Positions 4,163 to 15,090 of a stretch of DNA of 16,290 nt are shown piece by piece. The notes below the pieces were generated by a model. It made no database searches. It was given only the letters and a program-made list of their open reading frames with translations, and was not told the origin of the DNA. The first letter of the stretch is position 1. The number at the start of each line of letters is the position of its first letter. Origin of the DNA: a bacterium (GTDB taxonomy: Bacteria > Chloroflexota > Dehalococcoidia > Tepidiformales > Tepidiformaceae); assembly GCA_945861295.1 (NCBI GenBank), contig CAMAUF010000008.1, forward strand, positions 1 to 16,290, read 5' to 3'. Made by a program: the position numbers and the translations under genes.

Positions 4163-6259
4163 GTGGGCGGCAATCGCCGCCCGGCGGGCGTGGACGGGCG
4201 CGGGCGGACTTCTCGCGCGATGGTTAGACTACTCCCCATGGAAACTCTCTACGTGCTCCTCGGCGTCATCATCGGCGTCCCGCTGCTGCTGTTCCTCCTG
4301 CTCGTCATGACGGGTGCCGTCGTCAACATCGGCGGCCAACAGGTCGGCCTGCTCGAACGGCGTTACGTCGGCCGGGGCCTCCCCGAAGGCCGCGTCATCG
4401 CCATGCGCGGCGAGGTCGGCATTCAGGCGCGCGTCCTGCCGCCTGGCCTCCACATCCTGATCCCGTTCCTTTATAAGACGCGCAAGACGCCGATGGTCGT
4501 GATCAACGAAGACGAAGTCGGCATCGTCGAATCGATCGACGGCCACGCGCTGGAGGCCGGCCGCATCTTCGCCCGGCGCGTCCCCTCCCACGATACCTTC
4601 CAGGACGGCGAGAGCTTCCTCAGCAACGACGGCCAGAAGGGCACCCAAGTCGATGTCCTCCCGCCGGGCCAATTCCGGATCAACACCTACCTTTTCCGCA
4701 TCCGAGTCGAAAAAGCGCTGATCGTGGCGGCCAGCCAGGTCGGCATCGTCACCGCGCGGGATGGCCAGCCGATCGCGCCGGGCCGTCTCCTCGCCCGGCT
4801 CACGTCCGGCCATATCGCCTTCCAAGACGCCGAGTCCTTTCTCGCCAATCACGGACAGCGCGGACCGCAGATCGAACTCGTGCTCCCGGGCCGCTACCGC
4901 ATCAACTCCGACTTTTTCGGGGTCGAGGTGCGGCCCGCGACGGTCGTGGCCGCGAACATGGTCGGCCTCGTCACCGCCAAAGACGGCCAGCCACTCCCCG
5001 GCGGCGAACTCGTCGCCGCCCACGTCGAAGGCCACACGGACTACCAGGACGCCTCCGCGTTCATCATCGCCAACGGCCAACGCGGCCCCCAGTTCGACCT
5101 GCTCAAACCGGGCACCTACTACATCAACCCGCTGATGTTCGATGTCGGGCTGGATGAGGTTGCGATCGTGCAGCGCGGCGAAGTCGCCGTCCTCGTCTCG
5201 AATGTTGGCGCCGAACCGCAGGTCCAGTCCGAAGACGAGCGGCTCGCGCCCGCCCAGGAGCGGTATGTCGTCCCGGCCGGGTTCCGCGGCATCCAGCGCG
5301 ACGTGGCCGGACCGGGCGTCTACTACCTCAACCGCTGGGCCTACATCGCTTACGTCATCCCCACGACCAACCTCACCGTCGACTGGGCCGAGGAAGGCCT
5401 CATGCCCGACGGCGACAAACCCGACCCCACCGTCCTCGAGAGCAAGCGGGTCCAGCTTTTCAACCCGCTCGCCGTAATTAGCCGCGACGGCTTCGAGATG
5501 CGCGTGAGCGTCAAAGTCATCATCCGCGTCCGGCCGGATCAGGCGCCGCTTATGGTCGCCAAGATCGGCTCCGTCCAGAACCTCGTCGACCACGTCATCC
5601 ACCCAATGATCGATTCCTCGTTCCGTAACCAAGCGTCGTCGACCGAGGCGATGGCGTTCATGCAGGACCGCGCCGTCGAGCAGGAGAAGGCGGAATCACG
5701 CGCCCGCGAAGAGCTGGAGAAGTACCACGTCGAGTGCGTCCGCGTGCTCATCTCGCAGATCATCCTTCCGCAAGAGCTGATGACGATTCACACGCGGCGC
5801 GTTATCGCGGCGCAGCAACAGGCGATGTTCATCGAGCAGCAGAAGAGCGAGCAGGAGCGCATCGCCACCGAGAACACGCGCGCCCAGGCCGATAAGCAGA
5901 TCGACCTCGTCGCCGCCCAGGTCGGCGTGCAGATCGCCGAGCAAAACCGGCAGAAGACCGTCATCGAGGCCGAAGGCCAGGCCCGGGCCGTCGAACTCGC
6001 GGGTTCGGCGGAAGCGACGAAGATCCGCGCCGTCGGCGAAGCCACCGCCGAAGCCTACGACAAGCAGCAGGAGGCGGTCGGCCAAAGCAACCTCTTCGGC
6101 ATCGAAGTCGTCAAGGCGATTTCGGCCGCCGGCCTGAAGATCACGCCGGACATCCTGGTCAGCGGCGGGGGCGGGGATTCCGCCAGCGGCAACATCTTTG
6201 CCGCCTTCATGGCGCAAATGTTGGCTGGCCAGCGCCCGCCAACGACGCCAACGCCGTAG
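4163..6259 (+). CDS. Flotillin-like SPFH/band-7 membrane protein with N-terminal TM helix, three to four tandem ~75-aa repeats N-terminal to the SPFH core, and C-terminal coiled-coil
   Basis: The GTG at 4163 has GAGGTGA 7 nt upstream; alternative ATGs lie at 4220 and 4238. The protein has a basic N-terminus, then the TM 'LYVLLGVIIGVPLLLFLLLVMTGAVV'. Repeats 'VGIV(E/T)..DG..(L/I)..G........H..FQD..SF...(N)GQ(K/R)G.Q...L.PG.(F/Y)RIN' occur three times, plus a fourth degenerate copy. The SPFH core is 'ISRDGFEMRVSVKVIIRVRPDQAPLMVAKIGS...'. An EA/Q-rich flotillin-type C-terminus follows ('AEQNRQKTVIEAEGQARAVELAGSAEATKIRAVGEATAEAY'). Confidence 0.85.
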   Translation: MGGNRRPAGVDGRGRTSRAMVRLLPMETLYVLLGVIIGVPLLLFLLLVMTGAVVNIGGQQVGLLERRYVGRGLPEGRVIAMRGEVGIQARVLPPGLHILIPFLYKTRKTPMVVINEDEVGIVESIDGHALEAGRIFARRVPSHDTFQDGESFLSNDGQKGTQVDVLPPGQFRINTYLFRIRVEKALIVAASQVGIVTARDGQPIAPGRLLARLTSGHIAFQDAESFLANHGQRGPQIELVLPGRYRINSDFFGVEVRPATVVAANMVGLVTAKDGQPLPGGELVAAHVEGHTDYQDASAFIIANGQRGPQFDLLKPGTYYINPLMFDVGLDEVAIVQRGEVAVLVSNVGAEPQVQSEDERLAPAQERYVVPAGFRGIQRDVAGPGVYYLNRWAYIAYVIPTTNLTVDWAEEGLMPDGDKPDPTVLESKRVQLFNPLAVISRDGFEMRVSVKVIIRVRPDQAPLMVAKIGSVQNLVDHVIHPMIDSSFRNQASSTEAMAFMQDRAVEQEKAESRAREELEKYHVECVRVLISQIILPQELMTIHTRRVIAAQQQAMFIEQQKSEQERIATENTRAQADKQIDLVAAQVGVQIAEQNRQKTVIEAEGQARAVELAGSAEATKIRAVGEATAEAYDKQQEAVGQSNLFGIEVVKAISAAGLKITPDILVSGGGGDSASGNIFAAFMAQMLAGQRPPTTPTP

Positions 6260-6297
6260 ACCGACGCCCGCCGCGTCAGCTTCCTGAACGCCAGAGT

Positions 6298-6333
6298 GGG
6301 CCGGGCGTCCTTCCAACGAAGGATGCCCGGCCC
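6298..6333. terminator. 16-bp-stem hairpin (GGGCCGGGCGUCCUUC-caac-GAAGGAUGCCCGGCCC, one G·U pair) between convergent flotillin-like (+) and PEP-utiliser paralog 3 (-) genes; likely bidirectional intrinsic-type terminator without U-tract
   Basis: Arms 6298-6313 and 6318-6333. It sits 39 nt after the TAG at 6257-6259 and 25 nt before the minus-strand stop at 6359-6361. Confidence 0.45.
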
Positions 6334-6358
6334 GCGCCATTTCCTCGCCCGCCGGGAA

Positions 6359-7978
6359 CTATGACAGCAGCGTCACCAGTCCCGCCAAGCCATCAACCCG
6401 AATGCGGGCTCCGTCGGCGATCTGGGCCGTCGCGTCGCCGGCGCCCACGACAGCCGGGATGCCGTACTCCCGCGCCACGATCGCCGGGTGCGAGAGGATG
6501 CCGCCGCGGTCGGTCACGACAGCGCCCAGCAGCGGCAGCACGACGTTGTACGCCGGGGTCGTCATGCTGGCCACCAGGATGTCGCCGGGCTCGAGCCGCT
6601 CGAAGTCGCCTTCGCCCCTGATCAGACGAGCGCGGCCTTCGTAGACGCCCGCGCTCGCCCCCACGCCCCGCAGCTCCCGGCTCGGCGGCGAGACCTCGTC
6701 AGCGGTGTCCTCCAGGCTCATCGCCGCAAACAAGGCGCCCATGATCCGCTCCATGGCAGGCGGCAGTTCGCCGTCGGGCGGCGGGGCGTCCTCGCCCAGC
6801 CGTCGCGGAGGCGCGGGCGCGGGCGTGCGGCGCAGAGAACCACGAGCCGCCAACTCCGCCTGCGTCGGCCGTCCGCCCTGTCCGGTGAGGAGCGCCGCAA
6901 GCTCCCCTCCGCTGGCGTCGAAGATGTCGTCCACTTCGGCAATCTCGCCCCGTGCGGCCAGGCGCCGCCCGGCCTCCAGCAAGCCGCGCCGCACGAGGCC
7001 AATGGGCTGCTGGGTGGTCGGGCCGCTGTCGTCGTCGCGGAGGCCGTAGCCAAGGATGGCGTCGTCGATGATGGTTTCGAGGGCCGCGCGATCGTCCGGG
7101 CCAGCGGCCGCGCGAAGCTCAGCCAACAGACCCAAATCGCGCGGCGGCGGCATAGCGCCGGCCCGGATGGTCGCGAGAAAGAGCCCCGGAAGCTCGGCCA
7201 TCGTCTGGTGGGTGAAATCGAAGCCAGTAAACACCTGCCACCCGTGCTCGTCGAGGTAGGCGTCGATCGCATCCCGGACGGGCTGGGATGAACCGCGCAG
7301 GGCGGCGAGCGCGGCCTCGGGATCGCCACCACTCGACGAGATGCGCGCGGCCTCCGGGTCGGCGGCGATCGCGTCCCTGATACGCCCGACCGCCGCGGCG
7401 GGCGCCACCGAAGCCGGAGAAGCGCCGGCGAGGGCGCGAATCGTGCGCTCCGGCGGCCAGCCTGCGAGGCGGCCCGCCTCCATCAGCAACAGGCCGACGC
7501 TGACCCAATGCGCGACCGCATCGAGGAAGTGGCGCGTCGCCGCATCGCGGAGAAGCCCGAGCGCGCCGGCCAGATGGGCGGCGAGGGCCTCGTCGCTCAG
7601 GCCGGCCGGGTCGACCGCTTGAATGGCGCGGTTTCGCGCGACGAAGACGGCGCGGGCCGAGGATGACCACTCGTCCGCGATGGCGCGCCAGGGCCGGGTC
7701 GTTAGGGCGAGTTCGGCCGCCGCGATGCGGTCCGGAAACTCCTCGTCCGCGACTGGCGTCAACGTCCCAAAGAACCAGCCATGCAGATTGGCGGTCTCGA
7801 AGCGCGCGAACGGGATCCCGAACCGCGCGAATGCGTCGCTCGTTCCGGCGGCGAAGGCGCCACTGGCCATTTCGAGCCAGAGCGCGCTGAACGGGCGTTC
7901 CTGGTGGGCGGCATCGCGCTCCCACAAGCCCGGGCCGGGGGGTGCCCAGATGACTTCGACGGGGTTGGCTGTGCTCAT
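6359..7978 (-). CDS. PEP-utilising enzyme paralog 3 (divergent): RPH-like substrate-domain + C-terminal phospho-His 'swivel' (PEP-utilisers mobile) domain, no ATP-grasp
   Basis: ATG at 7978..7976 (MSTANPVEVIW...) overlaps the TetR stop TGA (7977..7975) as ATGA, i.e. translational coupling. The C-terminus 'GVGASAGVYEGRARLI...EPGDILVASMTTPAYNVVLPLLGAVVTDRGGILSHPAIVAREYGIPAVVG' is the PpsA/PPDK mobile-domain signature. The central 'GWQVFTGFDFTHQTMAELPGLFLATIRA' aligns with 'GCRGPNEWESRNDTWETRPELVLAAIDRMR' of paralogs 1 and 2. The 37 codons upstream of this ATG in the track ORF are Gly/Arg low-complexity. Confidence 0.8.
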   Translation of the reverse strand: MSTANPVEVIWAPPGPGLWERDAAHQERPFSALWLEMASGAFAAGTSDAFARFGIPFARFETANLHGWFFGTLTPVADEEFPDRIAAAELALTTRPWRAIADEWSSSARAVFVARNRAIQAVDPAGLSDEALAAHLAGALGLLRDAATRHFLDAVAHWVSVGLLLMEAGRLAGWPPERTIRALAGASPASVAPAAAVGRIRDAIAADPEAARISSSGGDPEAALAALRGSSQPVRDAIDAYLDEHGWQVFTGFDFTHQTMAELPGLFLATIRAGAMPPPRDLGLLAELRAAAGPDDRAALETIIDDAILGYGLRDDDSGPTTQQPIGLVRRGLLEAGRRLAARGEIAEVDDIFDASGGELAALLTGQGGRPTQAELAARGSLRRTPAPAPPRRLGEDAPPPDGELPPAMERIMGALFAAMSLEDTADEVSPPSRELRGVGASAGVYEGRARLIRGEGDFERLEPGDILVASMTTPAYNVVLPLLGAVVTDRGGILSHPAIVAREYGIPAVVGAGDATAQIADGARIRVDGLAGLVTLLS

Positions 7979-8562
7979 CGTGTTGGTTCCTCGCAGAGTT
8001 GATGGATTGCCCAGGCCACGGCCGCCGCCGCCTCTTCGCCCGAAGCGCCCAGGTACTCCTGGAAAAACCCGAGCGTTTCCGAGGTGCACAGCACCGTGAC
8101 CACTGAGACCAGCTTTTCGAAGGCGTCCGGGCTGAGCCGGGACCGCATGCCCGTGAGGGCCTCTCCGACCATCCGCTTTCGGTCGGCCACCTGTTCCCGG
8201 CGGATGGCAATGCCTTCGGCCGAGCGGAACGCCGGCGCCATGAGCGCCTGCCGGCCGCTGAGATGCGGGGCCACCTTTGCTACATGTTCTGCGAGCTCGG
8301 CGGCCGAGGTTGGGTCCGGCAAGGGGCTGAGGCCCGTCCGTGCGTCGAGGTGGTCGCTGATCGCACGGATCAGCGTCGCCTTGTCGGAGAAGTGGTGGTA
8401 GACGGTTGGGACCGAGACGCCGGCTTCGCGGGCCACCGCCGGGATCGAAAGGGCGCCCGGTCGCCGCTCGAGCAGGGCCACGGCTGCATCGAGGATGCGC
8501 TGCGCGGTGGCCGCTGCTTGGGCCTGGCGCAGCGGACTTCGGTAGCCGCCTTCGGTTCGCAT
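7975..8562 (-). CDS. TetR/AcrR family transcriptional regulator
   Basis: N-terminal HTH 'AQRILDAAVALLERRPGALSIPAVAREAGVSVPTVYHHFSDKATLI'. I take the start at ATG 8562..8560 (MRTEGG...). Alternative starts are 8568 and 8616; the 8616 start would place the palindromic candidate operator inside the CDS, so I disfavour it. Confidence 0.8.
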   Translation of the reverse strand: MRTEGGYRSPLRQAQAAATAQRILDAAVALLERRPGALSIPAVAREAGVSVPTVYHHFSDKATLIRAISDHLDARTGLSPLPDPTSAAELAEHVAKVAPHLSGRQALMAPAFRSAEGIAIRREQVADRKRMVGEALTGMRSRLSPDAFEKLVSVVTVLCTSETLGFFQEYLGASGEEAAAAVAWAIHQLCEEPTR

Positions 8563-8607
8563 GTTCATTAAACGAATCGTATTGCCAATGTGGGACGACG
8601 TCAAGGA

Positions 8608-8619
8608 CATGCGCATGTC
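8608..8619. promoter_or_regulatory. Perfect 12-bp palindrome ACATGCGCATGT in the TetR / PEP-utiliser divergent promoter region; candidate TetR operator
   Basis: The sequence is its own exact reverse complement. It lies 60 bp upstream of the paralog-1 ATG and ~46 bp upstream of the preferred TetR start on the other strand. Two TTAAAC-containing elements (8569-8574, 8630-8635) and a -10-like TAAACT flank it. Confidence 0.4.
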
Positions 8620-8679
8620 GAACCGTCCGTTAAACTTCGCCTGCTAGAGGCCGCCGATGCGGCGCAAGGAGTGAGCAAC

Positions 8680-10416
8680 ATGGATCCTTGGATCGTGGGT
8701 AGCGAACCCAGCACGCGGTATCCCGTTTGGACGCGGGCGAACGTGGGGGAAGTCTTCCCCGACCCGGTGGCGCCGCTCTCGTTCACGTTATTCATGGAGG
8801 AGTCGGTCGAGGGCGCCTGGCGCGATGCCCTCGTCCGCATGGGCGCGTTCACCCACGACGAGTTCGCCGATGGCAGAATGGAAGCGCTCGGCATCCATGG
8901 CGGCTACTGCTACCTCAACGCCTCCGTCACGCGCATCCTTGGCGAGCGCTCGCCTGGGCTTTCCGCTCAACTGATGGACGATATCTTCTTCGGGGCGCAG
9001 CCCGGCATCCCGCCCTATGTCGAAGCGCCCGGCGACCGCAACCCGGAGCGCGAGGCCGCCGTCGGCAAGACCTTCGAATGGGTGATGACCACGCCCACGC
9101 TCGAAGAGCCCGCGAAGGACGCCGCGATCCAGGACGCGCTCCACCGCGCCCGGCCGAACATCGAAGCCATGTCCAACGAGGCCATCTGGGCCTACGCCAA
9201 GGAGATCCTCGCCAAACACTTCCGCAAGCTCTTCAGCGAGCACATTTTCATCACGTTCCTGAGCCCGGTCCCGGTCGGCGTCTTGACGCAGATTTGCGCC
9301 GCCGTGGGCCGCCCGACCGACGTGATGCGGGTGATCTCCGGGGTCGGCGATGTCGAATCGGCCGCGCCGTCGATGTTGATGTGGAAGCTCAGCCGCCGAG
9401 TGGCCGCCGACCCGGCACTGATGGCCGCGTTCGACCAAGGCGTGGCCGGGCTGCCCGGCCGTCTTAGGGCGAGCACGGCGCCCGGCGCCGCAGCGTTCCT
9501 GACCGACTTCGCCGACTTCATCGACAAGTTCGGCTGCCGCGGCCCCAATGAGTGGGAATCGCGCAACGACACTTGGGAGACGAGGCCGGAACTCGTGCTC
9601 GCCGCCATCGACCGGATGCGTCTTGCGCCAGATTCTTCGGCCCCGCTGGCCAAGAACGAGCACATGGCCGAAGACCGGGTCAAAGCCGTGCTCGAAATCT
9701 CTGAACTGCTGGCCGGCGACCCGGCCACCCAGGGCATGTTCCTCGCGGCCGCCCGCGCCGCCGTCATCTTCCAGGCCGGCCGCGAGCGGACGAAGACGAA
9801 CTGCGTCAAGCTGATCCATGAAGCCCGGATTGGGCTGCACACCATCGGCCATCGCCTGGTCGCCGCTGGCCGCTGCGACGATTTTCGCGATTACGCGCTG
9901 CTGAAAGCCGACGAGTTCGATGCCTGGCTCGCCAACCCGGCCCCGATGCGGGCAGAGTTGGCACGCCGCCGCGCCCTTTTCGACGAGTATATGTCCGTCC
10001 AGGAGCCTTTCGTCTTCGCTGGCACGATCCCGGACCCACGCACATGGCCCAAGAAGGCAGCCTCGACGGTCGTCCCCGCCAAGGTCGGCGACGTCCTGAC
10101 TGGCATGCCCGGTTGCCCCGGGAAGGTGACGGGCACCGCGCGCGTCGTGCTCGACCCCGCCGACCCCACGGCGTTGGGGCCTGGCGAGATCCTGGTCGCC
10201 CCGATCACCGACCCATCCTGGACGCCGCTGTTCGTGCCGGCGGCGGCCGTCGTCGTCGATGTCGGCGCCGCCCAAAGCCACGCCATGATCGTCAGCCGCG
10301 AACTGGGCATCCCCTGCGTGCCCTCGGTCACCCACGCGACAAAGCGCATCCCCGACGGCGCGACCATCGAAGTCGACGGGGACGCCGGGACCGTCACCAT
10401 CCTGGCGCTGCCGTAG
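8680..10416 (+). CDS. PEP-utilising enzyme paralog 1: RPH-like substrate-binding domain + C-terminal phospho-His swivel domain (no ATP-grasp/PPDK_N domain)
   Basis: ATG at 8680 with AAGGAG 8 nt upstream. 578 aa. The C-terminus is 'GMPGCPGKVTGTARVVLDPADPTALGPGEILVAPITDPSWTPLFVPAAAVVVDVGAAQSHAMIVSRELGIPCV' (PF00391-type). The upstream track start at 8590 would overlap the TetR region and lacks an RBS. Confidence 0.85.
   Translation: MDPWIVGSEPSTRYPVWTRANVGEVFPDPVAPLSFTLFMEESVEGAWRDALVRMGAFTHDEFADGRMEALGIHGGYCYLNASVTRILGERSPGLSAQLMDDIFFGAQPGIPPYVEAPGDRNPEREAAVGKTFEWVMTTPTLEEPAKDAAIQDALHRARPNIEAMSNEAIWAYAKEILAKHFRKLFSEHIFITFLSPVPVGVLTQICAAVGRPTDVMRVISGVGDVESAAPSMLMWKLSRRVAADPALMAAFDQGVAGLPGRLRASTAPGAAAFLTDFADFIDKFGCRGPNEWESRNDTWETRPELVLAAIDRMRLAPDSSAPLAKNEHMAEDRVKAVLEISELLAGDPATQGMFLAAARAAVIFQAGRERTKTNCVKLIHEARIGLHTIGHRLVAAGRCDDFRDYALLKADEFDAWLANPAPMRAELARRRALFDEYMSVQEPFVFAGTIPDPRTWPKKAASTVVPAKVGDVLTGMPGCPGKVTGTARVVLDPADPTALGPGEILVAPITDPSWTPLFVPAAAVVVDVGAAQSHAMIVSRELGIPCVPSVTHATKRIPDGATIEVDGDAGTVTILALP
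10228..10335. repeat. Near-identical nucleotide segment shared between paralog 1 and paralog 2 swivel-domain coding regions (second copy ~12033-12140); signature of tandem gene duplication
   Basis: The two segments, both beginning 'ccgctgttcgtgcc...gtcgtcgatgtcggcgc...agccacgccat.atcgtcagccgcgaact.ggcatcccctgcgtg', differ only at scattered positions. Confidence 0.6.
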
Positions 10417-10469
10417 CCCTCCGCCTACCCCGCGCGAAGAGGCTCGTGCAAACTGGAAGGGAAGACCGC

Positions 10470-12221
10470 ATGTCCAAGTTTCGCTGGATCGAAGATCAGC
10501 CAGTCAGTGAAAAGGCGCCATTTCTGACGCGCGCCAACGTGGGGGAAGTCATCCCGGAGCCCCCGAGCCCGCTCGGCTGGGATCTCGTTTGGGCGAAAGG
10601 CGGCGCCGTCCGCGGCTGGCGCGATTGCGCCGTCAATCGCTTCGGGATCGGCGATGACGAGATGGACGCGGACCCCGACCGCTGCGAATTCATCGGCCTG
10701 CAGGGCGGCTACGGCTACCTCAGCGCCACCTGGATCCGCGTTTGGGGCGAACGGACGCCCGGCCTCAGCGCCGCCGCGATCGACGCCGTCTACTTCGGCG
10801 ACCATCCGGACGTGCTGCCGTATGTCGCGGAGCCGTGGCACGAGAACCCAGCCACGACCGAGCGAATGACACGCTGGCTCGGGAACGTGATGGGCACCAT
10901 GGACCAATCTGAGCTTGAAGCGGACCGGCTGAGGGCGCGCGCAATCGCCGCGGCTCGCCCGAATCTGGCGGCCATGAGCGATGCCGACCTCCTGGCACGC
11001 GCAGTTAGCCTTCGGCCCGTGTGCCGAAGCATGTTTGACCAGCACATCAACCAGAGCGGCTCGGCGGCGCTTGGCCCGGGGACGATTTCGGCGATCTGCG
11101 CGGCGATTGGACGGCCGGAAGCGGCGATGCGGCTGATCGTGGGCTTCGGCGGCGTCGATTCGGCGGCGCCGTCGTACGCGATGTGGGAGTTGGGCCGAAA
11201 GGCGCGCGCCTCAAAAGCGCTGACGACGTTGTTCGACCAAGGCTACGCTGGCTTGAACGCTGCCCTGCGCGCCAGCGCTGATCCCGATGCGCAGGCATTC
11301 TGTCACGAACTCGACGCATTCATCACAGAGTTCGGTTCGCGGGGACCGAACGAGTGGGACCTCGTTTCGCCGACATGGGAGACGCAGCCCGATATCGCCC
11401 TGGCCGCGATCGACCGGATGCGGCTCGCTCCAGCATCAGCGGCGCCACAGGGCAACACGTCCAGCCGCGAAGCGGACCGGGCCGCCATCACCGCCGAAAT
11501 CGAGGCGCTGCTCGCCGGCGATCCCGATACCCTGGCTACCTTCCGCGCCGGCCTCGCCAGCTCCCGGACCTACGTCCCGGGCCGCGAACGTTCGAAGACC
11601 AACATCATCCGCGTGCTCGAAGAACAGCGCGTCGCCGTCTGGGAGATTGGTCGCCGCGCCGTCGCGCGCGGCGAAATCGAGCAAGCCAACGACATCTGCT
11701 TCCTCTTCGAAGACGAGCTGGAGCACTACATCGCCGGGACCCTAACCGGGATCGGCCCCACGGTGCGCGAGCGCCGCGCGTACCACGATTGGCTGCTCAC
11801 CCTCGAACCACCCTTCATCATCAACGGGACGCCACCGCCGAACACAACCTGGCGCAAGCGCGCGGACGCTCCCGTGGACGCTGTCACCCTCGGGCAAACG
11901 CTGACGGGGATGCCCGGCTGCCCAGGGACGGCCCGCGGCCGCGCCCGCGTCGTGCTCGACCCCTCGGACCCGACGCTGCTGGAAGCGGGCGACATCCTGA
12001 TCGCGCCCATGACGGACCCGGCCTGGACGCCGCTGTTCGTGCCCGCCGCCGCGGTGGTCGTCGATGTCGGCGCGACGCTGAGCCACGCCATCATCGTCAG
12101 CCGCGAACTCGGCATCCCCTGCGTGGTCTCGGTCACCGGGGCATCGCGGCGCATCCCAGACGGCGCGCTGGTCGAGGTCAACGGCGATGCTGGGACGGTC
12201 ACGATTCTGGAGCTGCCCTGA
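10470..12221 (+). CDS. PEP-utilising enzyme paralog 2 (tandem duplicate of paralog 1)
   Basis: ATG at 10470 (MSKFRWIEDQ...) with GGAAGGGAAG upstream. 583 aa. It is collinear with paralog 1 ('RANVGEV.P.P.SPL', 'RGPNEW....TWET.P...LAAIDRMRLAP', identical swivel-domain motif). The track start at 10044 gives an Arg/Pro-rich, non-protein-like extension that overlaps paralog 1. Confidence 0.85.
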   Translation: MSKFRWIEDQPVSEKAPFLTRANVGEVIPEPPSPLGWDLVWAKGGAVRGWRDCAVNRFGIGDDEMDADPDRCEFIGLQGGYGYLSATWIRVWGERTPGLSAAAIDAVYFGDHPDVLPYVAEPWHENPATTERMTRWLGNVMGTMDQSELEADRLRARAIAAARPNLAAMSDADLLARAVSLRPVCRSMFDQHINQSGSAALGPGTISAICAAIGRPEAAMRLIVGFGGVDSAAPSYAMWELGRKARASKALTTLFDQGYAGLNAALRASADPDAQAFCHELDAFITEFGSRGPNEWDLVSPTWETQPDIALAAIDRMRLAPASAAPQGNTSSREADRAAITAEIEALLAGDPDTLATFRAGLASSRTYVPGRERSKTNIIRVLEEQRVAVWEIGRRAVARGEIEQANDICFLFEDELEHYIAGTLTGIGPTVRERRAYHDWLLTLEPPFIINGTPPPNTTWRKRADAPVDAVTLGQTLTGMPGCPGTARGRARVVLDPSDPTLLEAGDILIAPMTDPAWTPLFVPAAAVVVDVGATLSHAIIVSRELGIPCVVSVTGASRRIPDGALVEVNGDAGTVTILELP

Positions 12222-12223
12222 CC

Positions 12224-14404
12224 GTGCCGACCCAGCTTTTCGCGTTCACCGACACGATCCCCGGGCCAAGCGACCGCGCCGCGCTGCTCGGCGGCAAGGG
12301 CGCCGGGTTAGTGGAGATGTCGCAGGCGCTCCGGTTGCCCGTGCCGCCGGGCTTCATCATCCCGACCAGCGTCTGTCTCGAATATCTCGCCTCCGGCTGG
12401 CCCGCTGGCCTCGATGAGGCGATCACCGAGCAACTTGCCCGCCTGGGCGACCAGCTTGGGCGCCGGCTCGGCGACGCCGCGGCCCCGCTGCTCGTCTCCG
12501 TCCGCTCCGGGGCTCCGGTCTCGATGCCTGGCATGATGGATACGGTCCTCAACGTCGGCATGACCGGCGCCGTCCGGGAGGCGCTGGCCGCGGCGACCGG
12601 CAACCCTCGATTCGCGGCCGACACCTGGTCGCGCTTCCTCCGCATGTACGCGACCACCGTGCTCAATGTCCAGTCCGCAGCGTTCGCGCCGCCCCCGAGC
12701 CGCACCGCCGATGCGATCGAGCTGCTTGCCGACGGCGATTTCACCCTCCGGGCAGCCACGAGCGCTGGCGTCGCCATCCCCCTCGACCCAACAGCCCAGG
12801 TCCGCGGCGCGGTCGAAGCGGTCTTCCGTTCTTGGCATTCCGAGCGCGCCAGGGCCTACCGGGCCCGCGAGCGCATCTCCGAGGAGCTCGGCACCGCCGT
12901 CGTCATCCAAGCCATGGTCTTCGGCAATCTCGACGACCGTTCTGGCTCCGGCGTCGTCTTCACCCGAGACCCTTCGACCGGCGAAAACGTCCCCTTCGGC
13001 GACTACCTCGCGCGCGCCCAGGGCGAGGACGTCGTCGCGGGCACGCACGCCGTCCACGGGCTCGGCCTCCTGCGCGACCAGCTCCCGGAGGTTGATGCGC
13101 AACTCAGAGCCATCCTCGGCCGCCTCGAACACCACTACCGCGACATGTGCGACGTCGAGTTTACGGTCAGCGAAGGCCGCCTCTTCATCCTGCAGACGCG
13201 CGTGGGCAAGCGCAGCCCTCTCGCCGCCGTGAGGATCGCCGTCGATATGGCCGAAGACCCGGACTTCCCGCTGACGGTCGATGAAGCCATCGCGCGCGTC
13301 GGCGCCGAGACCGTGCGACAGGCGGCTGCCGGTATCACCGTCGCGGCAGGGTCGATGCCGGCTGGCGAAGGCCTCGCCGCCTCGCCGGGCGTCGGCTGCG
13401 GCGTTCTCTGTTGCGACCCGGGCCGCGCCTACGAACTGTCGCAGGCGGGCACGCCGGTCGTCCTCGTGCGCCGCGAAACGTCGCCGGAGGACGTACACGG
13501 CATGATGGGCGCGGCCGCGATCGTAACGACCCTCGGCGGCGTCGCCAGCCATGCCGCGGTCGTCGCGCGCGGCTGGAACATCCCGGCAATCACAAGCCTG
13601 CGCGATGCCGAAGTCTCGGACGCGGGCCTCACGCTGCCTGACGGCTTCATGGCCGAAGGAGAACTCGTCACCGTCGACGGCGGCGCCGGGCGCTTGTACC
13701 GCGGGGATTGCCGCGGTGAAGGCGCAAGCGATTCGCCGCAACTCCGGACCTTCCGCCGCTGGCTCGCCGAGAGCGGCGGCGCGAGCGCGGCCCAGTCCGC
13801 CGGCGCCACAAGCGCGGTTGCGGTCGACCTCTACACCGTCGGGCGGGTCATCCAGCTGAAGGGCTTGTGCGGCCCAGAGCGTGCGGCGGCCATCCTGGGT
13901 GTCGCCACGGAAGCAGTTGAAGCCGTGATCGAGGCCAACGCGGCCTCGTTCAAAGCCACTCCTCGCGGCCTCGCCCTGACGCCTGAGGCGCGCGCGTGGG
14001 TGCTCGCTCAGGTCGTGGTCGAGCGGGACACCGGCGACCAAGCGGCGCTTCAGCCGTGTTACGCGCAGTTCACCGCGCTCGACCGTCGCTTCAAGCAACT
14101 CGTGACGGCCTGGCAGACGAGCGACCCGGCCGCGCCTGAACGCCATCCCGGCGCCGCCACCGCGCTCGCCGGGCTGCACGACGCGCTCCAGCCGGTGCTC
14201 GCCGCAGCCGCGGCCGCCTTCCCGCGCCTGGCGAGCTACCCTGTGCGGTTGGCCGCCGCGCTGGCCGCGTTCGCCGCCGGCGACGGCACGATGCTGGCCT
14301 CGCCGCTGAAGGACAGCTATCACACCGTGTGGTTCGAATACCACGAAGAGCTGATCGCGCTCTCCGGCCGCGACCGCGCCACCGAAGAAGCGGCCGGGCA
14401 CTGA
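12224..14404 (+). CDS. Truncated PPDK/PEP-synthase-like protein: PPDK_N ATP-grasp nucleotide-binding domain + central phospho-His domain, with the PEP/pyruvate TIM-barrel replaced by an unrelated ~260-aa Ala-rich helical C-terminal region
   Basis: GTG at 12224 with GGAG 11 nt upstream, 2 nt after the paralog-2 TGA (coupled). 'LLGGKGAGLVEMSQALRLPVPPGFIIPT...PLLVSVRSGAPVSMPGMMDTVLNVGMTGAV...TGNPRFAADTWSRFLRMY' matches the PPDK N-terminus almost motif-for-motif. 'LGGVASHAAVVARGWNIPAI' matches the PPDK catalytic-His segment (His codon cat 13550-13552). After residue ~470 I see no similarity to any PEP/pyruvate-binding domain. The 1016-aa track ORF is an upstream out-of-frame extension over paralog 2. 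Confidence 0.8.
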   Translation: MPTQLFAFTDTIPGPSDRAALLGGKGAGLVEMSQALRLPVPPGFIIPTSVCLEYLASGWPAGLDEAITEQLARLGDQLGRRLGDAAAPLLVSVRSGAPVSMPGMMDTVLNVGMTGAVREALAAATGNPRFAADTWSRFLRMYATTVLNVQSAAFAPPPSRTADAIELLADGDFTLRAATSAGVAIPLDPTAQVRGAVEAVFRSWHSERARAYRARERISEELGTAVVIQAMVFGNLDDRSGSGVVFTRDPSTGENVPFGDYLARAQGEDVVAGTHAVHGLGLLRDQLPEVDAQLRAILGRLEHHYRDMCDVEFTVSEGRLFILQTRVGKRSPLAAVRIAVDMAEDPDFPLTVDEAIARVGAETVRQAAAGITVAAGSMPAGEGLAASPGVGCGVLCCDPGRAYELSQAGTPVVLVRRETSPEDVHGMMGAAAIVTTLGGVASHAAVVARGWNIPAITSLRDAEVSDAGLTLPDGFMAEGELVTVDGGAGRLYRGDCRGEGASDSPQLRTFRRWLAESGGASAAQSAGATSAVAVDLYTVGRVIQLKGLCGPERAAAILGVATEAVEAVIEANAASFKATPRGLALTPEARAWVLAQVVVERDTGDQAALQPCYAQFTALDRRFKQLVTAWQTSDPAAPERHPGAATALAGLHDALQPVLAAAAAAFPRLASYPVRLAAALAAFAAGDGTMLASPLKDSYHTVWFEYHEELIALSGRDRATEEAAGH

Positions 14405-15090
14405 TCCTCGCGATGCCATAATGCCAGGCCGGTTGGAAGCGCTCCCCTATGCCAGCGCTCTGGTCGAAACCCCAAGACAGCGAAGACCAGAATGCCCGCC
14501 AGGAGGATGGCGGAGAGATTGGTGACGAAGAGCAGCGCAGCTCCGCCCCAGACGCCCCGGTCGTTCAGCGCAATTCCGATCCCCACGGTGCAGAGGGGCG
14601 GCATGAGCGCGGTGGCGATCGCGACGCCCGGGAGCGTATCTGACTGCTGATGCCGGGCGAGGGCGTAGGCGCCCACGGCGCCCCCGGCCAAGGCGATCCC
14701 AAGGTCGAACGGATTGGGGCTGGTCCGGGCTTGAGCCTCCGACGGGAGCGTGACGAGCGCATCGAACGGCAATGCCTGAGCGAGCCATGTGAGGGCAGCA
14801 GAAAGACAGATCGCGACCGCGATTCCCTCGACAAGAGCGATGGCCGGGGACAAGAGCAGCGATGCATGTCCGCGGACCGAGCCGAGAGCCAGCCCCATGA
14901 TGGGAGTGAGCATCGGGGCGACCAGCATCGCCCCGATGACAACGGCCCCCGAATCGGCAATCAGGCCGAGCGTGGCGATTGCGCACGAAAACACGACGCG
15001 GACATGGAACCGGCTATCGGGTTTCGCCTCAGTTTCCAGGTGGTCCGCGAACGCCGCGTTGGCGTCGAGGTTTTGGCGGAATCCTGCCAA
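14320..15090 (-). CDS. Integral membrane protein, probably DUF389 family (short form)
   Basis: 256-aa ORF with multiple TM helices and the 'SGAVVIGAMLVAPMLTPIMGLALG' motif reminiscent of DUF389. The last ~45 codons are non-hydrophobic and overlap the 3' end of the convergent 12224..14404 gene by 85 nt, so the true C-terminus or frame there is uncertain. Confidence 0.5.
   Translation of the reverse strand: MAGFRQNLDANAAFADHLETEAKPDSRFHVRVVFSCAIATLGLIADSGAVVIGAMLVAPMLTPIMGLALGSVRGHASLLLSPAIALVEGIAVAICLSAALTWLAQALPFDALVTLPSEAQARTSPNPFDLGIALAGGAVGAYALARHQQSDTLPGVAIATALMPPLCTVGIGIALNDRGVWGGAALLFVTNLSAILLAGILVFAVLGFRPERWHRGALPTGLALWHREDQCPAASSVARSRPESAISSSWYSNHTV

Follow-up and report, generated by a model that had tools for sequence, protein, structure and literature searches.

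Swivelling-histidine dikinases are known as single chains, such as PPDK, phosphoenolpyruvate (PEP) synthase and rifampin phosphotransferase (RPH), or as two-component enzymes with one swivel domain. The two-component enzymes HpeHI, CreHI, PpsAB and AcvAB phosphorylate small molecules by way of the swivel His and consist of an H subunit, which carries the substrate domain and the swivel, and an I subunit that is an ATP-grasp domain only, and the swivel His of the H subunit attacks ATP bound on the I subunit (PMC12167813). VadK (Rv1127c) of Mycobacterium tuberculosis is a truncated PPDK needed for virulence that, given ATP/Mg2+, phosphorylates itself on His422; the authors of that work propose that it regulates methylcitrate-cycle enzymes, and they identify no phospho-acceptor (PMC13400623). 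Rv1126c, the operonic partner of VadK, improves VadK solubility and comes away from it only in 2 M NaCl (PMC13400623). The locus described here lies on contig CAMAUF010000008.1 of a high-GC (66–72%) metagenome-assembled genome (MAG) of the Tepidiformaceae. The entire 16,290-bp contig, referred to below as the window, was analyzed; its proteins are 65–72% identical to proteins of Dehalococcoidia and Tepidiforma MAGs. It contains three RPH-like paralogs, a tetR gene and a gene for a 726-residue PPDK-like protein. With slightly better than even confidence, this cluster is proposed to encode a multi-component ATP-dependent small-molecule dikinase, in which one donor would serve several substrate-specific acceptors with the aid of a docking or relay module.

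That swivelling-histidine dikinases may be split is established, and an earlier note on this DNA, which did not recognise the split architecture as that of a characterised system, was in that respect overtaken by the published HpeHI, CreHI and PpsAB (PMC12167813) and VadK (PMC13400623). Nonetheless, the combination is new: a VadK/PPDK-type donor with its own swivel, a mobile and undescribed module made of a winged helix-turn-helix (wHTH) and a four-helix bundle, and multiple acceptor paralogs. No description of a PPDK-type donor with RPH-like acceptors, or of the module, was found in the literature.

The PPDK-like protein and its C-terminal module

The features of the cluster are as follows.
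6359–7978, minus strand: paralog 3, 539 aa; RPH-type substrate-binding domain and C-terminal swivel.
7975–8568, 8562 or 8616 (start uncertain), minus strand: tetR; PF00440 TetR_N, E 1.8e-13.
8569–8679: divergent regulatory spacer, 63–117 bp according to the tetR start.
8680–10416, plus strand: paralog 1, 578 aa; RPH-type substrate-binding domain and swivel.
10470–12221, plus strand: paralog 2, 583 aa; domain order as in paralog 1.
12224–14404, plus strand: PPDK-like gene, GTG start, 726 aa.
12224–13735, plus strand: ATP-grasp and swivel part of the PPDK-like protein, residues 1–504, with the ATP-grasp at about 1–375.
13826–14404, plus strand: C-terminal module of the PPDK-like protein, about residues 535–726.

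The 726-aa protein matches the Pfam families PPDK_N (E 3.5e-44) and PF00391 (E 3e-19), and Pfam detects no PEP-utilizers_C (PF02896) barrel in it. The earlier description of an ATP-grasp protein with its own swivel His and without a PEP/pyruvate barrel is thus correct, and the cryptic barrel that had been considered there did not emerge. Residues 17–513 align to residues 13–526 of Clostridium symbiosum PPDK with an E value of 1.6e-108. The protein retains the motifs GGKG, VSVRSGA..SMPGMMDT, QGEDVVAG, EFT..LQTR.GKR and GGxASHAAVVARG, and His443 (codon 13550–13552) is invariant in 119 of 119 homologs. Homologs of 720–740 aa cover 99–100% of its length. Assignment as a canonical PPDK was rejected based on the missing PF02896 barrel and on the TIGR01828 score of 496.8 against a cut-off of 843.45, the alignment spanning positions 5–522 of 865. 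NCBIfam NF004531 (PRK05878), the family built on M. tuberculosis Rv1127c, is passed marginally (467.7 bits, cut-off 456); relatives without the fused module score 647–868 bits. By these sequence criteria the protein is a VadK/Rv1127c-type truncated PPDK with an extra domain and not a member of the ATP-grasp-only type. Autophosphorylation of His443 with ATP would be expected because the catalytic motifs are retained and the biochemistry of VadK has been published.

The extra domain comprises the last ~190 residues, where a conserved winged helix followed by a four-helix bundle stands in place of the PEP/pyruvate barrel; the earlier description had the remaining domains right but missed this one. 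The C-terminal domain (CTD) ends in the invariant motif MLASPLKDSYHTVWFEYHEELI, which includes His700 and His707. Searches with the CTD sequence yielded no Pfam (including MarR), NCBIfam or PDB sequence match. The highest conservation is found in the last helix of the bundle, not in the wHTH. Helix 3 of the winged helix, which reads DNA in MarR proteins, is variable and carries a net charge between −1 and −5 in 20 of 22 sequences, and the part that follows the winged helix is a generic four-helix bundle without the MarR dimerisation core. Because the position of the MarR DNA-reading helix is variable and acidic, we infer that the winged helix more likely contacts protein than DNA.

A profile of the CTD retrieved 1608 cluster representatives among 1.84 billion proteins. 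The best 150 of these 1608 include ~95 free-standing proteins of 183–221 aa, ~25–35 proteins that combine a PPDK-like part with the module, at least 6 fusions of an RPH-like part (with or without swivel) to the module, and one triple fusion of RPH-like part, PPDK-like part and module (1321 aa). Locus L095 (3722–7687), a single metagenome contig, encodes in one open reading frame (ORF) an RPH-like domain, a swivel, a PPDK ATP-grasp, a second swivel and the wHTH/four-helix module; a natural-looking linker of ~25 residues rich in Pro, Ala, Ser and Thr separates the first two parts. When fused, the CTD always follows directly after a swivel domain, whichever enzyme partner carries it. Annotation of the module is diverse. 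PGAP labels the free-standing form on RefSeq plasmids (H1, H9, H10 and H13–H15) as 'MarR family transcriptional regulator', 'transcriptional regulator' or 'hypothetical protein', and metagenome pipelines label some copies 'pyruvate, orthophosphate dikinase'. The source of these names seems to be either the fused forms or the winged helix by itself.

Genomic association of the module with RPH-like genes

Gene neighbourhoods were compared by scanning with the CTD only, one genome per species, which gave 160 relatives, and the best 80 loci were kept. An RPH-like gene lies within 3 kb of the CTD in 54 of the 80, in Chloroflexota, Actinomycetota and Alphaproteobacteria, so that the neighbourhood check suggested in the earlier note supports its view that the ATP-grasp protein and the paralogs belong together. 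The arrangement varies between lineages. Among 36 loci with the Chloroflexota-type PPDK plus module, the RPH-like gene is at most 300 bp upstream on the same strand in 28 and within 3 kb in 1 more; 7 lack it, only 1 of which is assessable. The order is swapped in Alphaproteobacteria (Bradyrhizobium), where the RPH-like gene is immediately downstream in all 8 loci. The free-standing module of Acidimicrobiia is divergent from an RPH-like gene in 13 of 20 loci. For the PPDK plus module of Actinomycetota (11 loci), an RPH-like gene occurs within 3 kb in 4, and 6 assessable loci have none. In locus L004 a gene matched at about 10001–12187 encodes a protein of 728 aa, 52% identical to that of the window, and is situated in a ribosomal-protein/rpoA cluster.

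The fusion partner changes as well. In L092 and L093 the CTD is fused to the RPH-like protein, and a CTD-less VadK-type gene follows immediately (PRK05878, 680 bits in L092 and 269.8 bits for a fragment in L093). In cultured Mycobacteriales each of the parts has a gene of its own. Mycolicibacterium sp. XJ1819 has, beside a TetR gene, an RPH-like gene, an unknown gene, a module of 201 aa and a VadK-like gene (646.9 bits), in this order; the unknown gene (315 aa) is conserved nowhere else. On plasmid pP7a of M. avium a TetR gene is adjoined by a VadK-like gene (867.6 bits), the module, an acyl-CoA dehydrogenase gene and an RPH-like gene. The pP7a module gene overlaps the VadK-like gene by 8 nt, and its product is 36% identical to the window's module (E 1e-32). 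A plasmid of M. branderi carries the same trio as pP7a, with the module annotated as a MarR regulator. A gene for an ATP-grasp-only partner was detected neither in the window nor in any CTD-bearing locus.

The linkage of the three modules across phyla is the classical signature of parts that work together, since it survives swapped gene order, a swapped fusion partner and complete fusion. The CTD shows the most consistent linkage to RPH-like genes.

The genes that adjoin the mycobacterial relatives include those of a cytochrome P450, an acyl-CoA dehydrogenase, an SDR and an alcohol dehydrogenase, which points to a possible role in the catabolism or detoxification of hydrophobic compounds. A luciferase-like monooxygenase is a possible recurrent partner enzyme: in L079 (7152–9847; Candidatus Microthrix) the RPH-like gene overlaps such a gene by 4 nt, and on a Dehalococcoidia contig (L001, 14665–15750) a Bac_luciferase gene is found ~700 bp downstream of the pair. 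Plasmid pROB02 of Rhodococcus opacus B4 (L098, 3106–8454) encodes a 793-aa 'PEP-utilizing enzyme' with the module at its C-terminus. Genes for an APH-like phosphotransferase and a tyrosine-protein phosphatase and one of the ecdysteroid-22-kinase family lie on its flanks, so that the region is a phosphoryl-transfer cluster.

The RPH-like paralogs, tetR and gene layout

The three paralogs are of the size and composition that the earlier note had read from the sequence, a substrate domain followed by a swivel in ~540–580 residues. Pfam places PF00391 at the C-terminus of all three (E 4e-23, 2e-20 and 9e-21), at residues 463–533 of paralog 3 (E 4e-23) and with an E value of 8.5e-21 in paralog 2; no ATP-grasp is matched by Pfam in any of them. 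In precomputed annotation from the source databases all three are tagged PF27448 Rph_4th. The catalytic His is His534 in paralog 1 (codon 10279–10281), His539 in paralog 2 (12084–12086) and His497 in paralog 3 (6490–6488). Paralogs 1 and 2 are 48% identical, 1 and 3 31%, and 2 and 3 34%. The substrate domain has the RPH fold, as had been anticipated, whereas its sequence identity to RPH is 20% and the scores of the RPH models fall far below their cut-offs. The full (T/S)xxGGxxxH loop occurs only in paralog 3 (TDRGGILSH); paralogs 1 and 2 have VDVGA(A/T)xSH. A Val or Ile in place of Thr/Ser eight residues before the His was considered as a signature of H subunits partnered by a PPDK-type protein and was rejected because L092 keeps Thr.

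Full-length homologs number hundreds to thousands for all four swivel-bearing proteins of the window, and the genes are therefore intact and not fragments. The family of paralog 3 is smaller (221 matches), and paralog 3 aligns with the C-terminal two-thirds of single-chain proteins of 856–897 aa, composed of PPDK_N, Rph_4th and swivel, with 36–37% identity over 98% of its length. Genes of the paralog 1 and paralog 2 types occur in other genomes too, each as the single partner of a donor gene; in L007, L011 and L021 an ortholog of the paralog 2 type directly precedes the PPDK-like gene. TetR genes adjoin the paralog 3 orthologs in L087 and L088 too. In L088 (9399–12515) a TetR gene with a 4-nt overlap precedes a paralog 3-type H subunit, which is followed by a 280-aa ATP-grasp-only protein. 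The latter consists of PPDK_N only and matches the ATP-grasp domains of PEP synthase and RPH (PDB 9goj_A, E 6e-34); the gene has no counterpart in the window. A tblastn search with this I-type ATP-grasp gave no match in the window or in 94 other loci, at a sensitivity of ~30% identity or more. Because the paralog 3 orthologs carry their own TetR, and once an ATP-grasp-only partner, the cluster looks like a TetR–paralog 3 module set back to back against an operon of paralog 1, paralog 2 and donor gene. Of the single TetR-controlled cluster formerly assumed, the coupling of TetR to paralog 3 stands, but the whole resembles two modules and not one ancestral unit.

The gene order and the two translational couplings given in the earlier note agree with the sequence. 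The stop codon of tetR and the start codon of paralog 3 share an ATGA (ATG 7978–7976, TGA 7977–7975), and 2 nt separate the TGA of paralog 2 (12219–12221) from the GTG of the PPDK-like gene at 12224. The gap between paralogs 1 and 2 is 53 nt and has a purine-rich stretch that contains GGAAGGGAAG. The width of the divergent spacer depends on the start of tetR. With ATG 8616, the start given by gene callers, it is 63 bp. A sigma-70-like site with −35/−10-like elements (TTGACG-17-TACGAT) is located on the minus strand at 8604–8576, inside the annotated long tetR ORF, and is the only one found in 6200–14700, where 0.5 are expected by chance. The position of this lone site within the long ORF is weak evidence that tetR may be short, starting at 8568 or 8562 and possibly leaderless. 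The spacer would then measure 111–117 bp, and the shared region of 117 bp described earlier holds for this start but not for the annotated one. The 9-bp palindrome ACGAATCGT (8572–8580) overlaps the −10 element. An inverted-repeat search of the spacer between tetR and paralog 1 gave no significant palindrome, only a trivial 9-nt one at the start of paralog 1, and hence no operator is proposed.

The stop codon of paralog 3 is 100 bp from a converging gene for an SPFH/Band 7 protein (4163–6259, plus strand; 698 aa; PF01145, E 3e-20). The N-terminal half of this protein contains three tandem repeats of ~60 aa with the pattern VG[IL]V..DG..L..G....H..[FY]QD...F...GQ[KR]G.Q...L.PG.[FY].IN. On the other side, a DUF389 ORF (14320–15090, minus strand) and the PPDK-like gene share 85 nt at their 3' ends. 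The final ~60 residues of the ORF, past the Pfam match, do not appear membrane-like, and the gene may be truncated or frameshifted.

Proposed mechanism, alternatives and comparison with known systems

In the proposed dikinase, the 726-aa donor would bind ATP in its ATP-grasp domain and autophosphorylate the swivel His443. Paralogs 1–3, each with an RPH-like pocket and a swivel His, would take over the phosphoryl group and hand it on to a small molecule that bears a hydroxyl group. The wHTH and four-helix bundle of the donor would serve as a docking platform, and possibly as a phosphoryl relay, that unites the two swivel-bearing proteins. Three routes for the phosphate may be envisaged: the PPDK ATP-grasp might act directly on the acceptor swivel, the phosphate on His443 might be transferred to the acceptor His, or it might be relayed via the invariant His700/His707 of the module. 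The TetR protein, whose gene is transcribed together with paralog 3 and away from paralog 1, would render expression inducible by a small ligand. Gene order, a size that is presumably similar to that of the module, and the reported tight binding to VadK suggest, as a lead only, that Rv1126c may be a free-standing form of the module, in which case its tight binding would fit a docking role.

A further reading, tentative and rather doubtful, regards the system as an ATP-driven phosphohistidine relay for small molecules that resembles the PEP-dependent phosphotransferase system (PTS), with VadK and Rv1126c as its donor/docking half in M. tuberculosis. A VadK-type donor would load its own swivel His, and the module would dock both proteins. 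Like an HPt domain, the module might also bear the phosphate itself, on its invariant SYHTVWFEYHEE helix (His700/His707). From there the swivel His of interchangeable RPH-like acceptor subunits would receive it, and the missing acceptor of VadK would be a swivel-bearing RPH-like protein, for example of the Rv2047c family. The model of that family (NF004520) is the top NCBIfam match of one fusion of RPH-like part and module, and it also matches paralogs 1 and 2.

Several points weigh against a donor–acceptor dikinase. The layout with three paralogs is found only in the window and in other assemblies of identical sequence. The paralog 3 ortholog of L088 is partnered by an ordinary ATP-grasp-only protein, and paralog 3 may depend on a gene outside the 16-kb contig. 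Two swivels are kept in every arrangement, whereas the characterised two-component dikinases use one. No RPH-like gene is present within the 10-kb flanks of 6 assessable Acidimicrobiia loci with a PPDK-CTD gene, and 6 assessable stand-alone CTD genes are likewise without an RPH-like neighbour. A lone gene for PPDK plus module, with no RPH-like gene within 10 kb, lies between rplQ and truA in at least three Acidimicrobiaceae loci (L004–L006, closely related loci that were fetched separately). PPDK-CTD genes thus exist without an RPH-like neighbour, so that the role of the donor, in whole or in part, does not depend on an RPH-like partner next to it. In addition, the published role of VadK is the binding of methylcitrate-cycle enzymes and not the phosphorylation of small molecules (PMC13400623).

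Such findings bear on the main rival explanation, which is considered unlikely and in which the 726-aa protein would be a regulatory histidine autokinase of the VadK kind, fused to a MarR-like DNA-binding or signalling output, with the paralogs obtaining their phosphate from another source. Its target would be the expression or activity of the RPH-like genes, or unrelated metabolism. VadK is described as a regulatory kinase that acts through protein contacts, and the lack of an RPH-like neighbour for some PPDK-CTD genes fits this explanation, as do the winged-helix fold of the module and the RefSeq name 'MarR family transcriptional regulator' for some free-standing copies; the divergent arrangement of free-standing module and RPH-like gene in Acidimicrobiia is a typical regulator–target layout. 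However, the variable and acidic helix 3 and the concentration of conservation in the last bundle helix instead of the wHTH argue against a DNA-binding output, and covalent fusion to either enzyme partner after the swivel would be unusual for a repressor. Moreover, the window has a TetR as a regulator of its own, and so do the Mycobacterium, L092, L087 and L088 clusters. Less likely still, the paralogs may be conventional two-component dikinases with an ATP-grasp-only partner encoded off the contig, the PPDK-like gene being a neighbour with its own function. The 280-aa PPDK_N-only protein behind the L088 ortholog of paralog 3 would fit such a partner, the window spans just 16 kb, and HpeH alone can move phosphate between phenolic substrates (PMC12167813). 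Against this, the only ATP-grasp genes found beside genes of the paralog 1 and 2 types are of the PPDK type, in three phyla and with changing gene order, the I-type tblastn search found no match in the window or in 94 other loci down to its limit of ~30% identity, and fusion proteins unite the RPH-like part with the PPDK-linked module.

A role in rifamycin resistance, with the paralogs as split rifampin phosphotransferases, is very improbable, although the substrate domain has the RPH fold, a TetR gene is nearby and some metagenome annotations call homologs 'rifampicin phosphotransferase'. The NCBIfam RPH models NF041857 and NF000283 give 77–136 bits compared with cut-offs of 999 and 1700, in line with the low identity to RPH itself. 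The fold is also used on phenols (HpeH, PpsA), in the prodigiosin ligases PigC and RedH, and for DNA binding by PspR, and three paralogs that are only 31–48% identical imply different substrates. PspR, an RPH-like repressor, was also considered as a precedent for the module and set aside, the parallel being with the RPH substrate domain. The probability that the genes are remnants of a full-length pps, ppdk or rph gene broken by a frameshift, the pseudogenisation that the earlier note had raised, is negligible. All that speaks for it is that the parts superficially look like pieces of one long enzyme, and it was ruled out by the same-length homologs of the paralogs and of the PPDK-like protein, by the intact catalytic His residues and motifs, and by confident AlphaFold2 models with predicted local distance difference test values of 90.7 and 88.9.

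If the donor–acceptor dikinase is real, a recurrent three-module form with two swivels and a module that migrates between partners would extend the enzyme class. It would add to the class many mis-annotated genes now called 'pyruvate, phosphate dikinase', 'PEP-utilizing enzyme', 'MarR family regulator' or 'hypothetical protein', and it would connect three gene families that have been studied separately or not at all. It would also provide a partner hypothesis for VadK, a virulence-essential kinase of M. tuberculosis, because VadK-family genes of other mycobacteria share operons with the module and an RPH-like swivel protein. Should the acceptors be kinases for hydrophobic alcohols or phenols, they could be of use in biocatalysis and offer insight into the modification of xenobiotics or antibiotics.

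The window shares with the known two-component dikinases an RPH-like domain and swivel His on one protein, an ATP-grasp on another, and adjacent genes. The systems differ in several respects. HpeI, CreI and PpsB are ATP-grasp-only proteins of about 340 aa with PEP-synthase-type motifs and no swivel, whereas the ATP subunit of the window is of the PPDK type and carries a swivel and the module. The H subunits of the window are shorter (539–583 aa compared with about 610–650 aa), the His loops of paralogs 1 and 2 (VDVGAxxSH) do not match the (T/S)xxGGxxxH of the known enzymes, and no phenolic-catabolism genes are nearby. Phenylphosphate synthase has a third small accessory protein, PpsC, but its CBS domains are unrelated to the module of the window. 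VadK and the window protein have in common an ATP-grasp and a His domain, the conserved catalytic His and the lack of a PEP/pyruvate domain. The VadK class ends shortly after the His domain, at about 480–540 aa (490 aa in VadK), while the window protein runs on for ~190 residues to 726 aa with its fused module. VadK-family genes of M. avium, M. branderi and Mycolicibacterium adjoin a free-standing module near an RPH-like gene; for VadK itself no RPH-like acceptor has been proposed.

Among single-chain enzymes, RPH and PigC/RedH share with the paralogs the fold of the substrate domain, the swivel and the chemistry, in which the ATP beta-phosphate passes via His to the substrate. They are single polypeptides with one swivel, and the paralogs score far below the cut-offs of their models. 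PPDK is homologous to the donor over the N-terminal 510 residues and has the same order of ATP-grasp, swivel and C-terminal domain; the latter is a PEP/pyruvate TIM barrel in PPDK and the wHTH with four-helix bundle in the donor. The PTS provides the established case of His-to-His chains between separate proteins, and the His domain of its Enzyme I is homologous to the swivel. However, the PTS is driven by PEP and not by ATP, and the folds of HPr and EIIA are unrelated to the modules of the window.

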